Assembly: GCA_050953065.1 (NCBI GenBank)
Contig: JBMNLZ010000001.1
Span: 1 to 64,000 of the forward strand
Origin: Bacilli bacterium
GTDB taxonomy: Bacteria; Bacillota_I; Bacilli_A; ML615J-28; CAG-698
DNA: 64,000 nucleotides
Reading direction: 5' to 3'
A model generated the notes under the pieces. The model had not been told where the DNA came from. It did not search any database and saw nothing but the letters and a program-made list of their open reading frames with translations. Shown here piece after piece: positions 26,526 to 64,000 of the stretch. The stretch's first letter is position 1. Every line of letters starts with the position of its first letter. The position numbers were made by a program, and so were the translations under genes.

Positions 26526-27872
26526 ATGTTCAAAAGTCAATATTTGAATGAAGTTTTTAATAATTTGAGTTTAAGAAATGCTCATGAAAAAGAGTTTTTA
26601 CAAGCAGTTGAAGAATTCTTAGAGTCAATCGATTTAATAATCGATCAATATCCGAATATCCAAAAACATGGTATCATTGAAAGAATAGTAGAACCTGAAA
26701 GAATGATTTCTTTTAGAGTGCCATGGGTTGATGATAATGGTAAAGTACAAGTTAATAGAGGTTATAGATGTCAGTTTAATAGTGCAATTGGTCCTTACAA
26801 AGGTGGATGTAGATTTCATCCAAGTGTAAATCAATCTATTATCAAATTTTTAGGCTTTGAACAAATGTTTAAAAATAGCCTTACAACTCTTCCTATGGGG
26901 GGTGGAAAAGGCGGTGCTGACTTTAATCCAACAGGAAGATCAGATAATGAAATTATGAGATTTTGTCATAGTTTTATGGCAGAGTTATATCGTCATATTG
27001 GTTCTGATATTGATGTCCCTGCTGGTGATATAGGTGTTGGAGCAAGAGAAGTAGGTTTCTTGTACGGATATTACCGCAAACTTAAGAATGAATGGACAGA
27101 AACTTTTACTGGTAAAGGCCTAACTTATGGCGGATCTTTAGCAAGGAAAGAAGCAACAGGATATGGGCTTTGTTATTTTGTTGAAGAAATGCTAAAAGTT
27201 ATGAAGAACGATTCATTTAAAGGCAAAAAAGTAGTTATTTCTGGAGCGGGGAATGTCGCCACATATGCTGCCTATAAATGCAGTGAATTAGGTGGAAAAG
27301 TTATAGCTATGAATGATTCTAAAGGATATATTTATGATGAGGCTGGTATTGATATAGATTTTGTTAAAGAGATAAAAGAAGGAAAAAGATTATCTCTTGA
27401 TCAATATTTGACTAAATATCCTAAAGCAAAGTATGGTGATGTTAGAACTGACATTTGGAAAATTAAATGTGATATAGCCTTACCTTGCGCCACACAAAAT
27501 GAATTAGATTTAGAAAGTGCACAAGCTTTAGTTGCCAATAAAGTTATGGTAGTTGCAGAAGGTGCTAATATGCCAACAACTTTAGAAGCAACAAAATATC
27601 TTCAAGAAAATAAGGTGTTATTTGCACCTGGTAAAGCAGCTAATGCTGGCGGTGTTGCTACTTCAGGTCTTGAAATGACTCAAAATGCAATGCGTTTAAG
27701 TTGGTCTTTTGAAGAAGTAGATGAAAAACTAAAAGGTATTATGATTAATATCTTTGAAAATACTTATAAAGCATCTGAAAAATGTGGGCAAAAAGGAAAC
27801 CTAGTTTTAGGTGCTAATATAGCAGGTTTCTTAAAAATCTGTGATGCGATGATCGCACAAGGAGTTATCTAA
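26526..27872 (+). CDS. gdhA: NADP-specific glutamate dehydrogenase
   Basis: GPYKGG.RFHPSVN, LPMGGGKGG, DVPAGDIGVG, EATGYG, PCATQNE, PGKAANAGGVA. Confidence 0.95.
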   Translation: MFKSQYLNEVFNNLSLRNAHEKEFLQAVEEFLESIDLIIDQYPNIQKHGIIERIVEPERMISFRVPWVDDNGKVQVNRGYRCQFNSAIGPYKGGCRFHPSVNQSIIKFLGFEQMFKNSLTTLPMGGGKGGADFNPTGRSDNEIMRFCHSFMAELYRHIGSDIDVPAGDIGVGAREVGFLYGYYRKLKNEWTETFTGKGLTYGGSLARKEATGYGLCYFVEEMLKVMKNDSFKGKKVVISGAGNVATYAAYKCSELGGKVIAMNDSKGYIYDEAGIDIDFVKEIKEGKRLSLDQYLTKYPKAKYGDVRTDIWKIKCDIALPCATQNELDLESAQALVANKVMVVAEGANMPTTLEATKYLQENKVLFAPGKAANAGGVATSGLEMTQNAMRLSWSFEEVDEKLKGIMINIFENTYKASEKCGQKGNLVLGANIAGFLKICDAMIAQGVI

Positions 27873-27916
27873 GGAAGGAGAAAATAAATTTTTTAAAAAA
27901 GTTTATTTTATAAAAT

Positions 27917-29158
27917 ATGAAAATTATTGCTAAACATTCTGATGGACTTATCTTATCTCAAGATACTTTCCAAATATCTGATATTACAAAAAGGGAAAAA
28001 GCTAAAAATCCAGCCATTATTGATGGCACTTTAGGCGTGCTTAATATGGAAGATGGTGCTTTTCATACTTTTAAAACAGTTAAAGAGATTTTATTTAATG
28101 CTGTTGATTCTAAAATTTATGCCTATACTACATCTGATGGTGGACCTGAATATAGAGAAGCAGTATTAAATTGGGTGTTTAGAGATTATAAAGATGAACT
28201 ACTTAAAGTTTTTGATTGCAAAGTAGTTGCAACACCAGGTGGGACTGGTGCAATTAGTGCAAGTATGTTCAGTAGTCTTGATGCAGGTCAAACTGTTTTG
28301 ATTCCTAATTTATGCTGGAGTCCCTATTTTGGTATTGCTGAAGATAAAGGATTAAAAATTAAAAAATTTACTTTATTAAAAGATGGAAAATTCAATGTAG
28401 ATGGTTTTATTGAAAAAGCTAACGAAATTGTTGCAGAACAAAAGAAATTAGTTGCAATAATTAACAATCCTTGTAATAATCCAACTGGATACTCTATGAG
28501 TGATGCTGAAGTTGATGCAGTTATTAACTATCTTAACAGTCTAAAAGGAATTCCATGTGTTTTAATCTATGATATTGCGTATATTGATTTTTCTAATGAT
28601 GGAATGGATGCAACTAGAAAACAATTTAAATTATTTGAAAAAATCAATGATAATATCTTGATTTCGGTTTGTTTTAGTGCCTCAAAGACATTTTCAATTT
28701 ATGGAATGAGATTAGGTGCTCAAATTTTCTTAAGTAAAAACAAACAAGCTGTAATAGATTTTTATAATGCATCAAACTTTACTGCAAGAAATAACTGGTC
28801 TAACTGTAATACTGGAGCTGTTAATCTACTAGTTGCAATTGATCAAAATGAAGATTTAAAAAATCAATTCTTAGAAGAATTTGCTAAAGTTATTGAAATG
28901 GTTAGGATAAGAACTAATATATTTTTAGAAGAAGCTAAAGAAGTTGGGTTAAAAATCAACCCATATCATAGTGGTTTCTTTATTACGATTCCTACTAATC
29001 ATTGTGATGAAGCGATTGAAAAATTAAAAAAAGAAAAATTTGTTTACTTACTTGCTTTTGGAGGAAATATAAGAATTGCAATTTGTTCTTTGCCAGCTGA
29101 GGATATTAAGGGCTTAGCTAAAAAAATAAAAGATGTATTAAAAGAATTTGGAGAATAA
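27917..29158 (+). CDS. PLP-dependent aminotransferase class I/II
   Basis: TPGGTGA, NNPTG, DIAY, SASKTFSIYGMRLG. Confidence 0.88.
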   Translation: MKIIAKHSDGLILSQDTFQISDITKREKAKNPAIIDGTLGVLNMEDGAFHTFKTVKEILFNAVDSKIYAYTTSDGGPEYREAVLNWVFRDYKDELLKVFDCKVVATPGGTGAISASMFSSLDAGQTVLIPNLCWSPYFGIAEDKGLKIKKFTLLKDGKFNVDGFIEKANEIVAEQKKLVAIINNPCNNPTGYSMSDAEVDAVINYLNSLKGIPCVLIYDIAYIDFSNDGMDATRKQFKLFEKINDNILISVCFSASKTFSIYGMRLGAQIFLSKNKQAVIDFYNASNFTARNNWSNCNTGAVNLLVAIDQNEDLKNQFLEEFAKVIEMVRIRTNIFLEEAKEVGLKINPYHSGFFITIPTNHCDEAIEKLKKEKFVYLLAFGGNIRIAICSLPAEDIKGLAKKIKDVLKEFGE

Positions 29159-41264: not shown

Positions 41265-41296
41265 GGTGTGGTATAAAAAAAGGAGAGAATTTTAAT

Positions 41297-42934
41297 ATGT
41301 CTATAATTGATGCAATTATATTTTTATTAGGTGGTTTAGGTGCTTTTTTACTTGGATTTCAGGTTTTATCGGATAATATTGAAAAATTAGCTGCTAAAAA
41401 ATTAAGACAATTATTTAATAAAACATCAAAAAGTAAAATAGTTGGTATGGGTGTAGGTTTAGCAACTACAGCTATTATCCAAAGTTCATCAGCCACTACT
41501 GTAATGGTAGTTGGATTTGTAAATGCTAATATAATGTCTCTTTTTTCTGCAACAACTATTATAATGGGAGCTAATATTGGTACAACTGTTACTGCGCAAA
41601 TTGTTGCTTTAAAAGCATTTAATTTTGTAAAATTTGCAATTGTTTTTACATGTATAGGAATTTTTATGAATATGTTTGCTAAAACTGATAAGAAAAAAAC
41701 TTTAGGGTTAGTTTTAGCAGGCTTAGGCTTAATCTTTTTAGGGCTTGATACAATGTCTAGTTCAATGAAAGCTTTTAGGGAAAGCCAAGTGTTTGTTGAT
41801 GCATTGTCTATTATCACTAATCCACTACTTTTATTATTAATAGGAGCTGCATTTACTGCTATTGTTCAAAGTTCATCTGCAGTAACTTCAATTTTAATTA
41901 CAATGGTTGGAGCAGGTTTTGTTATTGGTGGCGGTGGTAATGCGATATTGTATGTAATTTTAGGAACAAATATTGGAACATGTGTTACTGCATTACTATC
42001 TTCAATTGGAGCAAGTACTAATGCTAAAAGAGCAGCTCTGATTCACTTAATGTTTAATGTTTTTGGTTCAATTATATTTTTTATAGTGCTTGTAATATGG
42101 AGAGGTTTTATGGACAATGTAGTTGCTAAAATCTTTACTGATCCTGGTACACAAATTGCAATGTTCCATACATTCTTTAATACTGTTTGTGTTGCGATGT
42201 TTTTACCTTTCACAAATGTTTTTGTAAAACTTTCGAAAACGATTATTAGAGATAAAAAAATTCCAGAAGATATCAAAATTACTTATATGGACTCAAGAAT
42301 TTTAAATACTCCAACTATTGCTATTTCGCAACTTACAAAAGAAGTAGTAAGAATGGGTGATACTTCAATTAAAGCTTTAGAAAAAGCATTAGAAATGTTT
42401 TATCAAAAAACTATTGATGATGAGCAAAATGTTAGAGAGATAATTAACGAAGCAAATATAATGAATAAACAAATTACTGACTATTTAGTTAAAGTTTCTA
42501 CTAATAACTTATCATACTCAGATGAAGTTGCAATTGGTAAGTTATATCATGTAATTGCTGACCTTTTACGTATTAATGAAGTTGCAGATAATGTTGTTAA
42601 ATATACAACTTCAGTTGTAGAACAAGGTTTGGAGTTTTCAGAATCAGTAATGGAGTCTATTGGTGAGATGTATGCTCAAGTAAAAGAATTATATCAAGAA
42701 TCCATTGCTGTCTTTATGACTCGCAACTTAAATAGACTTTCAAAAGTTGATAATATGGAAGATAAAATTGATAAGATGAGAAAAGAGTTAATAGATGCTC
42801 ATATCAAGAGATTAAATGATGGTAAATGCAAAGCTAGTAGTAGTGGTGTTTTTATTAATTTAGTTAGTAATCTTGAAAGAGTAGCCGACCATATAACTTA
42901 TGTTGCATATTCTATAAAAGAAGAAAAAAAATAG
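41297..42934 (+). CDS. Na/Pi cotransporter with C-terminal PhoU domains
   Basis: Two QSSS repeats with GANIGT / GTNIGT; C-terminal helical domain ending LERVADH. Confidence 0.92.
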   Translation: MSIIDAIIFLLGGLGAFLLGFQVLSDNIEKLAAKKLRQLFNKTSKSKIVGMGVGLATTAIIQSSSATTVMVVGFVNANIMSLFSATTIIMGANIGTTVTAQIVALKAFNFVKFAIVFTCIGIFMNMFAKTDKKKTLGLVLAGLGLIFLGLDTMSSSMKAFRESQVFVDALSIITNPLLLLLIGAAFTAIVQSSSAVTSILITMVGAGFVIGGGGNAILYVILGTNIGTCVTALLSSIGASTNAKRAALIHLMFNVFGSIIFFIVLVIWRGFMDNVVAKIFTDPGTQIAMFHTFFNTVCVAMFLPFTNVFVKLSKTIIRDKKIPEDIKITYMDSRILNTPTIAISQLTKEVVRMGDTSIKALEKALEMFYQKTIDDEQNVREIINEANIMNKQITDYLVKVSTNNLSYSDEVAIGKLYHVIADLLRINEVADNVVKYTTSVVEQGLEFSESVMESIGEMYAQVKELYQESIAVFMTRNLNRLSKVDNMEDKIDKMRKELIDAHIKRLNDGKCKASSSGVFINLVSNLERVADHITYVAYSIKEEKK

Positions 42935-60077: not shown

Positions 60078-62696
60078 ATGAAAAAAATTAGTGGGTTTTT
60101 ATGTTTAATGTTTATAGGGGTTGTAATTTTTTCGGGATGTGGTACTAAAACTGATAATAAAACTTATACAGTTACTTGGAAAAACTATGATGGAACTGTT
60201 CTTGAAACAGATAAGGGTGTTTTAGAAGGGACTATGCCTGAATATAATGGTGATGAACCAACAAAAGAAGGTTTTAATTTTAGTGGCTGGACTCCTGAAC
60301 TAAGTATAGTTAAAGAGAATGTTACATATGTTGCCGTATTTACCAGTGGTGATGGAACAAGTGGTGAAGAAGGTGGTGGAACAGGCGGAGAAGAAGGTGG
60401 AGGCACTGGCGAAGAAGGAACAGGTGGAGAAGTAATTGATATTGACGAATTTATTTTCGTTGATAAAGCTGATGGAGTTGCTCTAATTAGTTATTTAGGT
60501 AATAAAAGTAAAGTTGTAATTCCTGCAGTATATGAGGAAAGACCAGTTGTTTCTATTGAGCAGTGGGCATTTGAAAATAACCAAACAATGACATCAGTAG
60601 TTGTTCCAGATAGTGTTATAGAGATAAAAGAAGATGCCTTTTATGAATGTTCAACTCTAAAAACGGTTACTTTAGGTAATAGTGTAAAATCGATTGAATT
60701 AAATGCGTTTTATGGTTGCACAGTATTAGAATCTATCAATTTGCCTGAAAGCCTTATTTATTTAGGTGATGAAATATTTGCTAATTGTCCTGCGCTAACT
60801 TCAATTAGTTTGCCAAATAGTCTTGAATCTTTTGGTGGTTGGATGTTTATGGGTGCTGATGCTATAACATATACTGAATATGAAAATGGATACTATTTAG
60901 GTAATGCAACAAATCCTCATCTAGTTTTTGTGGAAATGATTGATGGATCAAAATCTACAATTACAATTCATAATAATTGTAAGATTATTGGTAATGATGC
61001 ATTTAAATATACAAATATATCAACAGTTAATTTTGGAAGTGGTGTTGAATTCATAGGTAGTGCTGCTTTTGACAGTTGTACACAGTTAACTGAAGTAATA
61101 ATCCCAAACACTGTTAAAACAATTGGTGCGATTGCTTTTAAAAACTGCTCAAATTTAACACAAGTTACGCTTGGTGATAATGTTAAATATGTTGGTGAAT
61201 CTGCTTTTTATGACTGCGCTAAATTATCAACAATTAATCTTTCTGATTCTATTGAATATATCGGCAATTCTGCTTTTGATTATTGCGATGATATAACATT
61301 AACTGAATCTAATAATGCTTATTATTTGGGAAATGTAGATAATCCACATTTATTATTATTAGAGGCTAAATCTACATCAATTAGCATAGTTACAATTAAT
61401 GAAAACACAAAATTGATTGCTGGTGCTGCTTTTAGCGGTTGTTCAAATTTAGCAACTATAACTATTCCTAAAAATGTTAAATTCATTGGTAGAAATGTCT
61501 TTTATGGATGTAGCAATTTAACTGAAGTTATCGTTGCAGATGAAAATCCAAAATTTGAAGCTCCGACTAAAACAGCTATTGTTGAAAAAGAAACCTCAAC
61601 TCTTGTTCTAGGACTTAAAAATGCTGTGATTCCAGCAGGAGTAACTAAGATAGGTGATTTCGCTTTCAGCGAATGTGAAGATTTAATGGAAATAGAGATT
61701 CCTGAAGGTGTTACATCAATAGGTGATTATGCATTTAATTGTTGCAGAAAACTAACATCTATTGAAATTCCAAATAGTGTAATATCAATTGGGGAATGTG
61801 CATTTTATGATTGTAATAAACTGGCATCATTGACACTTTCTGATAATCTAAAATATATTGATAAAAGCACATTTTATAGATGTTATCAATTGACAGATGT
61901 TACTATCCCTGATGCTATTACATATATTGACGACTATGCATTCGGTAGATGTACTGTATTAAGTAACCTTGTTTTTGGAAATAATTTAACAGTTATTGGT
62001 CAATATGCTTTTAATCAATGCGAAGCATTGACAACGATTGTTATACCTAATAATGTAAAATATGTAAATTATGGTGCTTTTTCTGACTGTATAAATGTTA
62101 CATCTATTACAATTGGTAGTGGAGTTTTGAAAATAGATAATTTAGCTTTTGCTAGATCCGATTCTACTGCAATTATTACAGTAGACGGTGATAATGAATT
62201 TTATGATTCACGAGATAATTGTAATGCAATTATTGAAACGAAAACAAATGTTCTTATAACTGGAAATAAATCTACTGTAATTCCTAATAGTGTAACGAGC
62301 ATAGCTTCACATGCTTTTTATGGTTGTGTCGGGTTAGAAGATTTAGCACTTCATGACGGTATAACTGAAATAGGTGATTATGCATTTTATAATAATACTG
62401 GATTAGCAACAGTAACTTTAGGAAAAGGGCTTGTATCTATTGGTTGTTATGCATTTAGAGGCTGTACTGAAATAAATCAAATTATTATACCAGAAAGTGT
62501 TACCAATATAGAAACTAGTGCTTTTAGAAATTGTACAAAAATAAAATTCTATGCTGAAGCAGAAAGTCAGCCAGATGGTTGGGATGGATCTTGGAATTAC
62601 AATAAATATCCAGTCTTCTGGTATAGTGAAACTTCAAATGCTGATGGTTCACATTGGCACTATGTAGATGGTATTCCAACTGTTTGGGTTTCTTAA
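60078..62696 (+). CDS. BspA-type leucine-rich repeat lipoprotein
   Basis: Lipobox FSGC; one InlB-B-like repeat; G/E linker; many IG..AF..C..L..I.IP repeats. Confidence 0.88.
60348..60431 (+). repeat. In-frame tandem repeat encoding a G(G)TGGEEG linker
   Basis: [28 protein letters not shown]. Confidence 0.7.
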
Positions 62697-62727
62697 ACGG
62701 TTAATTAATTTTTATATCTGTATAGAT

Positions 62728-62821
62728 AAAAAAACTTCAAAGTAATATAAAAAGTCAAAAGTTTAATTTTTTAATCACCTCCTTTTTTAAAAACTAAGAC
62801 TTAAAACTTTGAAGTTTTTTT
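62728..62821. other. Long stem-loop (terminator or small RNA) with an anti-Shine-Dalgarno sequence in the loop
   Basis: Perfect 16-bp inverted repeat AAAAAAACTTCAAAGT / ACTTTGAAGTTTTTTT, inner AAGTC/GACTT and AGTTT/AAACT pairs, apical ATCACCTCCTTT. Confidence 0.65.
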
Positions 62822-62929
62822 GTGTTTAGTTTATGTTAACAAATCACCAAAAAAATGATATAATTAATCGAATCTTAAGGAAGGAGATAGTCAGTTAGAT
62901 ATAAAAACTTAATTGATTAAATACAAAAA

Positions 62930-64000
62930 ATGATTAAACTATCAAATGTTTCTAAGTATTATCATAGTGATAGTGGTGTTGTATTAGGACTTAGAAAAAT
63001 AAATTTAGAATTAAATGTTGGAGAATTTATTGCTATTACTGGGGAAAGTGGTAGTGGTAAATCAACTTTATTAAATGTAATCTCTGGTAATGATACTTAT
63101 GAAGAAGGAGAATTATTTATAAATGGTGAAGAAACTTCACATTTTATTGAAAGTGATTGGGAAAAATATAGAAGAGATTATGTAGGATTTATATTCCAAA
63201 ATAACAATTTAATAGATAGCTATACAGTTTATGAAAATGTCTTATCTGCTTTAATAATTCAAGGATTAGATAAAAAAAATAGAAAAAAAAGAGCTAAAGA
63301 AATTATTGAAAAAGTTGGTTTAACTTCACATCTAAAGCATAAAGCAATTAAACTATCTGGAGGCCAAAAACAACGTTTAGCAATTGCAAGAGCTCTTGCA
63401 AAAGATGTCCCAATTATTGCTGCTGATGAACCAACAGGAAATCTTGATAGTGAAAGTGGAAAAGAAATAATTAAATTGTTAAATGAAGTTTCAAAAGACA
63501 AGTTAGTAGTCATAGTAACACATAATTTTGAACAAACTAAGGAGTACGTTTCTAGAAAAATAAGACTATATGATGGTGAAATAGTAGAAGATATAGAATT
63601 AAAAAGTGTTCAAAAAATTGATAAAATCAATGCAACTGAACATAAAAATACAGTTTTTAAAAAATCAATTAAATTTGGATTGCTTAACTTAAAAAGTCAA
63701 CCAATTAGAACTGCTTTTCTATTAATAATATCTTTATTATTTACGATTATTATTTTCAATATTTTTGGAAATTATTTAGCAAGTCAAGATAAATCTGATG
63801 CATATAATTCGTATTATAGTACTGTTAATAACATTTATAAGGAAAGAATAATTGTATCTAAGAAAGATAAGAGTGCTTTTACTGCTGAGGATGATACTTA
63901 TATCAATTCACTTTCAAAAGTAAAAAGAGTGATTAAACAAGATTTAGCTCTAGATGCTGAGTTGAAAGTAAATTTGGCTGTAGAGAATCAAAGTTTTTAT
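62930..64000 (+). CDS. MacB-like fused ABC ATP-binding/permease protein, running off the window end
   Basis: MIKLSNVSKYY, GESGSGKST, GFIFQ, LSGGQKQR, ADEPTGNLD, VTH, then a TM helix; no stop before 64000. Confidence 0.9.
   Translation, partial: MIKLSNVSKYYHSDSGVVLGLRKINLELNVGEFIAITGESGSGKSTLLNVISGNDTYEEGELFINGEETSHFIESDWEKYRRDYVGFIFQNNNLIDSYTVYENVLSALIIQGLDKKNRKKRAKEIIEKVGLTSHLKHKAIKLSGGQKQRLAIARALAKDVPIIAADEPTGNLDSESGKEIIKLLNEVSKDKLVVIVTHNFEQTKEYVSRKIRLYDGEIVEDIELKSVQKIDKINATEHKNTVFKKSIKFGLLNLKSQPIRTAFLLIISLLFTIIIFNIFGNYLASQDKSDAYNSYYSTVNNIYKERIIVSKKDKSAFTAEDDTYINSLSKVKRVIKQDLALDAELKVNLAVENQSFY

Follow-up and report, generated by a model that had tools for sequence, protein, structure and literature searches.

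Two genes of bacteriophage T4 are the closest described precedents for a ribosome-binding site in which a hairpin compensates for a long distance between the Shine-Dalgarno (SD) sequence and the start codon. In the split site of gene 25 a distance of 27 nucleotides (nt) is cut to 11 by a hairpin (Nivinskas et al. 1999; Malys and Nivinskas 2009, in PMC3014915), and in gene 38 a hairpin shortens the SD-AUG spacing from 22 nt to 5 (Gold 1988, cited in PMC3014915 and PMC7297116). In addition, the noncontiguous initiation regions of thrS and rpmE in E. coli indicate that a stable stem-loop in the region bound by the 30S subunit can be tolerated (PMC7297116, PMC3936740). Here we analyzed a 64,000-nt stretch of DNA (the window) at the start of a contig of a Bacilli bacterium, in which an ATP-binding cassette (ABC) transporter gene with its ATG at position 62930 has a leader of comparable layout. 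We consider this leader to be probably a split (hairpin-bridged, noncontiguous) ribosome-binding site of the T4 gene 25/38 type, based on its sequence and on analogy with the phage genes. The same predicted design recurs at about 17 genes of the genome, among them ftsZ, trpS, greA and genes resembling glgC, leuB and oadA.

The ABC leader resembles T4 gene 25 in that the SD is too distant in linear terms, a hairpin occupies the gap and about 11 nt are left once the hairpin is discounted (here from 43). Two further likenesses to gene 25 are that the position can be intercistronic, as at a sister site at 27870, and that the hairpin is kept among close relatives only. The sites differ from gene 25 in lying on a bacterial chromosome and not in a phage, in numbering about 17 genes per genome and not one, in always having an extended SD of 8–9 nt that would pair with the very 3' end of the 16S rRNA, and in having A/U-rich, weaker predicted stems. 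As in gene 38, the hairpin would bring SD and AUG together, but the residual distance here is 6–17 nt (mean 10.5) and not 5 nt. The hairpin of thrS and rpmE is placed differently again, as it lies between an upstream single-stranded enhancer and a normally spaced SD and is a protein operator, whereas here it lies between the SD and the AUG. An earlier note on this DNA had called the element possibly undescribed; this claim had to be withdrawn for the layout as such, as an SD-hairpin-AUG arrangement that restores a workable spacing was already known from T4 genes 38 and 25 (PMC3014915, PMC7297116). A bacterial genome that uses hairpins between SD and start codon at many unrelated genes, together with an extended SD, was not found in the full-text literature, a search that had most subscription journals outside its scope.

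Analysis of the ABC leader (Table 1) agreed with the earlier note on the positions of a 12-mer, a stem and the ATG within 62875-62932 and on the lack of a proximal SD: there was no G-rich motif in the 20 nt upstream of the ATG, and no GGAG, GAGG, AGGA or AAGG in the 18 nt upstream. The linear distance from the end of the distal GGAG (62886) to the ATG is 43 nt. The arms of the intervening hairpin are TAGTCAGTTA(G) on the 5' side and (T)TAATTGATTA on the 3' side, giving 10 base pairs (bp), two of them G-U, which a third G-U pair would extend to 11 bp. The note had put about 11 unpaired nt between stem and ATG, which was right as to the layout, while the exact count was 10. It had also pointed to a comparable spacing near 41281-41297, where we found a GGAG 11 nt before an ATG (41282-41299). 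Folded alone, the hairpin had an energy of -6.1 kcal/mol (z -2.9, equalled by 2 of 200 shuffles), and of -6.9 kcal/mol with its flanks. Neither the minimum-energy fold nor the centroid fold drew the SD or the AUG into the stem, and the hairpin is single-copy in the genome.

The start codon of the ABC gene could be fixed at 62930 from its conserved N-terminus, MIKLxNxSKYYH, which was kept in most of the orthologues from 29 relatives, with five distant ones aligning only at non-start codons. An upstream start is excluded by an in-frame TAA at 62918-62920, and no ATG, GTG or TTG that the distal SD might serve occurs 4–13 nt after it within 62876-62900. The gene product had a Pfam ABC_tran match (E 2e-35). 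The only promoter-like site within 62600-63000 (Table 1) would place the start of the ABC mRNA near 62871, about 5–7 nt upstream of the SD. The element at 62876-62932 was identical in contigs of three other metagenomes (digester, bioreactor and sludge, from three studies), which had zero differences over 62729-62976; these represent a strain-level distance. A metagenome contig from the same digester carried a relative's ABC orthologue behind an ordinary ...CGGAGGAAAATAT-ATG, with upstream letters matching those of the orthologue in another relative (G008, locus L007).

Table 1. Positions in the window of the ABC-transporter leader at 62930 and of its sister site before the aminotransferase gene.
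Feature	Position	Strand	Remarks
Predicted sigma-70-type promoter, TTAACA - 17 nt - TG-n-TATAAT	62836-62864	+	11/12 hexamer matches plus extended -10 TG; predicted from consensus match alone
12-mer TAAGGAAGGAGA	62876-62887	+	Contains the extended SD
Extended SD AGGAAGGAG	62878-62886	+	Inside the 12-mer; potential for 9 bp with the 16S rRNA 3' end, one G-U
Spacer hairpin	62888-62919	+	5' arm 62888-62898, loop 62899-62908 (10 nt), 3' arm 62909-62919
A-rich single-stranded spacer	62920-62929	+	10 nt, hairpin to ATG; linker (1 nt) + spacer = 11 nt
ATG and first 357 codons of MacB-like ABC transporter (ATPase-permease fusion)	62930-64000	+	Open reading frame; continues beyond the window
Extended SD AGGAAGGAG, sister site	27872-27880	+	Within the second 12-mer copy, 27870-27881
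A/U-rich hairpin, 13 bp, one G-U, 3-nt loop	27881-27909	+	Begins directly after GGAG; -4.4 to -5.9 kcal/mol
7-nt spacer and ATG of class I/II aminotransferase gene (27917-29158)	27910-27919	+	Open reading frame, Pfam

The 16S rRNA ends in GGATCACCTCCTTTCT in both rRNA copies, and the pairing partner of AGGAAGGAG is this 3' end (...CCUCCUUUCU / ...CCTCCTTTCT), with 9 bp of which one is G-U. On this reading of its pairing potential the 12-mer is a 5'-extended SD and no special motif. The full TAAGGAAGGAGA had only two copies in the 1,554,579-bp genome (62876 and 27870), while AAGGAAGGAG had five, three of them with a hairpin and an ATG 36–43 nt downstream and two at canonical spacing (6 and 11 nt). 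Neither the exact 12-mer nor the 10-mer could be upheld as what defines the element, as 12 of the 17 split sites have GAAAGGAG and the orthologue of one AAGGAAGGAG site in the closest relative has AAGAAAGGAG. The earlier view of the identical 12-mer as the hallmark of the element was replaced accordingly, the common feature being an extended SD of the form G[AG]AAGGAG. This was present at all 16 split sites tested, compared with 26 of 474 canonical GGAG sites (Fisher p 4e-19), and a 17th split site, found afterwards, also has it.

The second 12-mer copy was found where the earlier note had placed it, at 27870, with a hairpin of unrelated sequence behind it and an ATG at 27917. It opens with the TAA stop of the upstream glutamate-dehydrogenase-like gene. 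The N-terminus of the aminotransferase encoded downstream, MKI(I/V)AKH, is kept in relatives, and no ATG, GTG or TTG occurs 4–13 nt after the SD within 27870-27895. The segment 27882-27910 folded alone at -4.4 kcal/mol (z -2.5, with 7 of 200 shuffles equal), with a z of +0.15 in a context of 76–80 nt. With per-site fold statistics as weak as those of the hairpins at 62888 and 27881, a single site does not go beyond chance; the recurrence does.

This recurrence was apparent across the whole 1.55-Mb genome (29.5% G+C), in which our own simple caller of open reading frames gave 1242 genes of at least 90 codons (translation table 11, coding fraction 0.92). The distances from [AG]GGAG to the first start codon had a mode at 6–7 nt and a second bump at 28–45 nt, with 33 motifs compared with 9 at 46–63 nt and 16 at 64–81 nt. 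The distal cases, when listed, repeatedly had an SD, a flush hairpin, about 10 nt and then the ATG. Spacers folding at -5 kcal/mol or below made up 11 of the 22 with a distal SD and no proximal SD 4-mer, compared with 10.5% of 325 and 10.9% of 440 controls (Mann-Whitney p 0.004 and 0.0017 for spacer stability against the two control sets). A hairpin criterion of at least 6 bp with G-U pairs allowed proved uninformative, as about 20% of any 5-mer's occurrences satisfied it, and it was therefore replaced by stricter tests anchored on the SD or the start. Among 247 start-proximal hairpins (at least 7 bp, ending 5–14 nt upstream of a start), 17 were preceded by a GGAG at a distance of 0–3 nt from the stem, compared with a background of 0.67% (p 2e-12). 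Of the 26 first-start genes with a distal SD only, 10 had a flush hairpin, whereas in 1000 dinucleotide shuffles the number averaged 0.94, peaked at 6 and never reached 10; at non-SD anchor positions the frequency was 2.3% (p = 1.3e-10 for the distal-SD excess). The earlier note had proposed testing, against shuffled controls, for enrichment of a hairpin followed by a start codon; with the distal SD as anchor, this enrichment was found.

The accepted split sites number 17, or about 1.4% of genes. They have a linker of 0–2 nt, a stem of 7–13 bp, a loop of 3–14 nt and a spacer of 6–15 nt, with folding energies from -5.1 to -13.9 kcal/mol. The sum of linker and spacer lies within 7–13 nt at 15 of the 17. 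Six candidates with an ATG in the loop at canonical SD spacing (C2+614148, C3-143573, C3-3931, C2+325476, C2+638076 and C3+437379) were dropped, as was C2+406116, which is inside an S1-domain coding sequence. The hairpin sequences were mutually unrelated and single-copy by blastn-short, save for those of two neighbouring paralogues that are 92% alike; the extra matches of the 27881 hairpin were low-complexity A/T. In the accepted stems there are six internal G-U pairs and zero internal A-C mismatches, which, small as these numbers are, favors an RNA hairpin on the sense strand.

A Pfam scan, which covered 16 of the 17 genes (C1+133504 was not among them), assigned to split sites FtsZ, TrpRS, GreA, a GlgC-like nucleotidyltransferase, a LeuB-type dehydrogenase and an OadA/PYC-type carboxylase subunit. 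The further genes encode four Big_2 lipoproteins, an NAGPA-domain protein, an HD-EAL protein, two ABC proteins, the aminotransferase and a membrane protein without a Pfam family. The Pfam domains start 2–13 residues past the proposed starts of the sister genes, and an in-frame stop lies between SD and ATG at all sites whose ATG is the first start in frame. The worry in the earlier note that another start codon might be used was thus allayed by conserved N-termini and by domain boundaries, both of which back the proposed starts. The Big_2 lipoprotein paralogues (about 1100 residues; C2:34456, C2:38095, C1:327755 and C2:249695) all have split sites; the hairpins of the two neighbouring genes are near-identical (92%) and the other two have different stems.

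We compared the sites of this genome (G000) with those of 40 relatives from 27 genera in two families, of which a single genome (G001) is of the same genus, with 80.3% DNA identity to G000 over 116 kb. Queried site by site, G001 was found to keep nine of ten assessable split sites, those of the glgC-like, leuB-like, greA, oadA-like, second ABC, membrane-protein and NAGPA-domain genes and of two Big_2 genes. The exception was the ABC gene at 62930. Outside this count were 27917 (contig break), ftsZ (N-terminus missing), and trpS and the HD-EAL gene (no match). By hand count, in the eight sites with unchanged pairing the stems differed between the two genomes at 4 of 144 bases, while the loops had about 18 changes in 40 nt and the spacers about 15 in 81 nt. 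At the remaining site, the NAGPA-domain stem GCACGATTT/AAATTGTGC has become GTATGAC/GTCATAC in G001, i.e., three double compensatory changes and one change from G-U to G-C, and the downstream ATG, behind a 10-nt spacer, is the only one available to this gene in G001. These comparisons showed purifying selection and compensatory change on the stems at the sister sites. A 124-kb sample of G001 contigs containing no G000 split site gave one pipeline hit, a false positive in an S1-domain coding sequence.

The leader of the glgC-like gene contains a 24-nt palindrome (L075, G000 C1:252889-252912; L076 in G001) whose loop reads AAAA in G000 but TTTT in G001, as would result from an inversion of the center. 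Its 5' arm contains an ATG, from which an open reading frame of 11 codons, out of frame with the gene, starts in G000, whereas in G001 the same ATG is in frame and would extend the gene by 10 codons.

More distant relatives rarely had the split layout at the same genes. No split site was found at the 29 relatives' loci for ftsZ or at the 28 assessable ones for trpS, and for the glgC-like gene there was one in 28, that of G001. By eye, a purine run resembling an SD was present no more than about 15 nt from the start in nearly all the non-split orthologues. In 456 kb of other relatives' loci there were two pipeline hits, one of which was the G001 glgC site. The aminotransferase orthologue of G008 (L197) has an independent split site, in which GAAAGGAG is followed after 1 nt by a bulged hairpin of 14 bp (-10.3 kcal/mol) and then by about 10 nt and an ATG; the hairpin sequence is unrelated to that of G000 at 27917. 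Two plausible sites were also found in a 400-kb sample of G002, which is of another genus (contig C2, L175-L194), namely AAAGGAG-taa-TATTTTACTAA/TTAGTAAAATG-8 nt-ATG and TAAGGAG-caa-14-bp stem-10 nt-ATG, neither with G[AG]AAGGAG. The same sample had no histogram bump (4 motifs at 28–45 nt and 7 at 46–63 nt, compared with 35 and 11 in G000 under the same pipeline). As a predicted layout, the split architecture is thus present beyond the genus, and its turnover between genera suggests that it is easily gained and lost. The earlier note had named a lack of structural conservation in relatives as a ground for refutation, and the outcome was divided: conservation was lacking for the ABC gene but was found, in G001, for the class as a whole. 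Its broader proposal, an element that recurs in this lineage and is linked to translation initiation, gained from the enrichment, the fixed geometry and the conservation in G001.

The trpS leaders offered an observation of a different kind. In G000 (L105) this leader consists of the promoter, the SD and the small hairpin only, and many relatives' trpS leaders (L107, L110-L113, L125-L134) have, by eye, AATTAAGGTGGTACCGCG... and a terminator. The latter look like T-box-type leaders.

With its hairpin and its strong SD-like sequence close to where the ABC mRNA is predicted to begin, the leader also resembles STAB-SD elements and the 5' stem-loop of the aprE leader, which act as mRNA stabilizers in Bacillus. 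The SD and hairpin could then be a stabilizing 5' module in which a parked 30S subunit blocks 5'-end-dependent decay, while translation starts independently of the SD on an A-rich, unstructured start region. The A-rich spacers before the ATG, the number of genes that lack a proximal SD by our own measure (335 of 1241) and, by eye, a TTGACA...TATAAT promoter-like pair shortly upstream of the trpS SD are all compatible with this explanation, and the position of the SD so close to the predicted mRNA 5' end (5–7 nt, from the promoter at 62836-62864) keeps it alive for 62930 in particular. We nevertheless regard it as unlikely. At least three sites are intercistronic, with the SD at 27870 overlapping the upstream stop and the SDs of the glgC-like and leuB-like genes directly following the upstream gene; a stabilizer has no need for a constant distance of 7–12 nt from hairpin to ATG or for a systematic lack of a proximal SD; and the split-site genes have no second SD of their own. 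Genes with a STAB-SD keep a separate functional ribosome-binding site downstream, and the split-site genes differ from them both in this respect and in that several sites are intercistronic. Membership of the STAB-SD class was rejected for the ABC gene on the former ground, there being no second SD before the ATG at 62930. Less probable still is that the palindromes are DNA operators or other DNA-level signals placed between SD and ATG, with the RNA hairpin a by-product. Most stems are perfect inverted repeats of 8–12 bp with centers of 3–6 bp, several have TG...CA ends, the four Big_2 paralogues have similar palindromes, and conserved arms with a variable center would suit a dimeric protein equally well. 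Against this, the hairpins share no consensus and have no other match in the genome, apart from the one paralogue pair, and would thus require many different regulators. Operators would also leave unexplained why the hairpins directly adjoin the SD and keep a fixed distance to the ATG, why a proximal SD is missing and why the SD is always of the extended form; moreover, the imperfect stems have G-U pairs and no A-C mismatches, and the NAGPA-gene stem was altered by compensatory substitutions that kept its pairing.

Two other explanations appear very improbable. In one, the SD serves a short upstream open reading frame, with the main gene translated by termination-reinitiation coupling. This fits only the glgC-like leader, where an ATG 6 nt after the GGAG opens an 11-codon frame ending 2 nt past the main ATG; the ABC leader itself has a TTG ATT AAA TAC AAA AAA TGA from 62913 that overlaps the ATG at 62930. 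That TTG, however, is separated from the SD by 26 nt and belongs to the 3' arm of the hairpin, and neither this leader nor that at 27870 has a start 4–13 nt after the SD. Such a start was found at only 2 of the 17 sites, those of the glgC-like gene and the oadA-like gene, the latter a TTG whose frame stops after two codons. The upstream ATG of glgC changes its frame relative to the gene between G000 (out of frame) and G001 (in frame) and thus does not behave as part of a conserved frame, and coupling was ruled out as a general explanation. That an SD-like purine run and a weak hairpin rich in A/U should have met by chance in intergenic DNA of high A+T content is no more credible, even though the in-context folding z was -0.9 for the 62888 hairpin and +0.15 for that at 27881, and about 20% of arbitrary positions in a genome of 29.5% G+C precede a stem of at least 6 bp. 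The genome-wide tests reject it, the sister sites are conserved and covary, and the ABC gene has no other SD. Several known classes were also rejected. An RNA thermometer of the ROSE or fourU type was ruled out by the location of the SD (62878-62886) and the AUG outside the stem, and a REP- or MITE-like mobile palindromic repeat by the hairpins being single-copy. No intrinsic terminator was predicted at 62876-62932 or 27870-27920, where the tails after the stems are A-rich. Rfam 15 gave no match in 62600-63000 at E values up to 1, and at gathering scores its matches in the window were tRNAs and a 6S RNA only.

We therefore favor the split ribosome-binding site as the probable explanation of the leader at 62930. 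The 30S subunit would dock on the unusually long SD, AGGAAGGAG, through 8–9 bp with the extreme 3' end of the 16S rRNA. The 32 nt that begin 1 nt past the SD would fold into the hairpin and be looped out of the mRNA path, leaving about 11 nt between SD and AUG, so that the AUG could reach the P site as described for T4 genes 25 and 38. The long SD may compensate for the awkward geometry, or for a residual spacing above the canonical one, and the hairpin may stack on the SD helix. By analogy with the phage genes, ribosomes may thus initiate through the folded hairpin.

Several observations weigh against this explanation. The split site was present at none of the 29 orthologous loci of the ABC gene, G001 included, and the G001 orthologue has a proximal GGGGTGA; the support for the site at 62930 consists of its anatomy and of analogy with its 16 sister sites, with no comparative support of its own. 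Its hairpin is among the weakest of the set, with three G-U pairs and a z of -0.9 in a context of 76–80 nt. The residual spacing of about 11 nt exceeds the genome's canonical mode of 6–7 nt. In addition, 335 of 1241 genes had no proximal SD at -7 kcal/mol or below (as measured with a crude gene caller), so that SD-independent initiation may be common and the distal SD might not recruit the ribosome. Most stems are perfect palindromes, which makes DNA-level selection possible, and the gene models came from our own simple caller and the 17 sites were chosen partly by judgement. In the search for evidence of expression, three RNA runs covered small shares of the stretch. The run aligned to this region spanned 62985-63244 only, missing the 5' end, and had 34 differences, which means that its reads are from a relative and are uninformative on expression of the ABC gene.

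The surroundings of the locus showed two further features. Between the leucine-rich-repeat gene and the ABC-gene promoter, 62726-62823 contains an 18-bp stem, AUAAAAAAACUUCAAAGU / ACUUUGAAGUUUUUUUGU, around about 60 nt (-21.2 kcal/mol, z -2.3), which is probably a two-way terminator. Its anti-SD-like loop holds AAUCACCUCCUUUUUU, which is nearly identical to the 3' end of the 16S rRNA, so that the minus strand reads as a strong SD with no open reading frame behind it. The first 19,000 or so positions of the window, at the start of contig C1, have 52–67% G+C, compared with 25–31% elsewhere in the window and genome, with a sharp boundary; this part is probably either foreign DNA in the form of an island or the result of chimeric assembly at the contig end. 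The few genes called there (e.g., 7103, 9460 and 11068) have no split site.

Split ribosome-binding sites are usually seen as curiosities of two phage T4 genes. What this genome adds is a pattern on a genomic scale, at many unrelated genes including essential ones, and always with an extended SD. Predictors that scan 5–15 nt upstream of the start would call the split-site genes SD-less, ftsZ, trpS and greA among them. In turn, the approximately 17 sequence-unrelated natural examples form a series with different stem strengths, loop sizes and residual spacings that could serve studies of how the 30S subunit accommodates structure. More tentatively, and with considerable doubt, we speculate that these sites are a regular, selected class in this family, whose members are wall-less-type bacteria of low G+C from digesters and the gut. 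Such a class would need an extra-long SD that pairs with the last 8–9 nt of the 16S rRNA, its helix abutting the hairpin and perhaps stacked on it, and could act as a fold-dependent switch. If this speculation is correct, translation would fall whenever heat, a helicase or an RNA-binding protein melts or unwinds the stem, and the logic of the switch would be the reverse of that of classical RNA thermometers.

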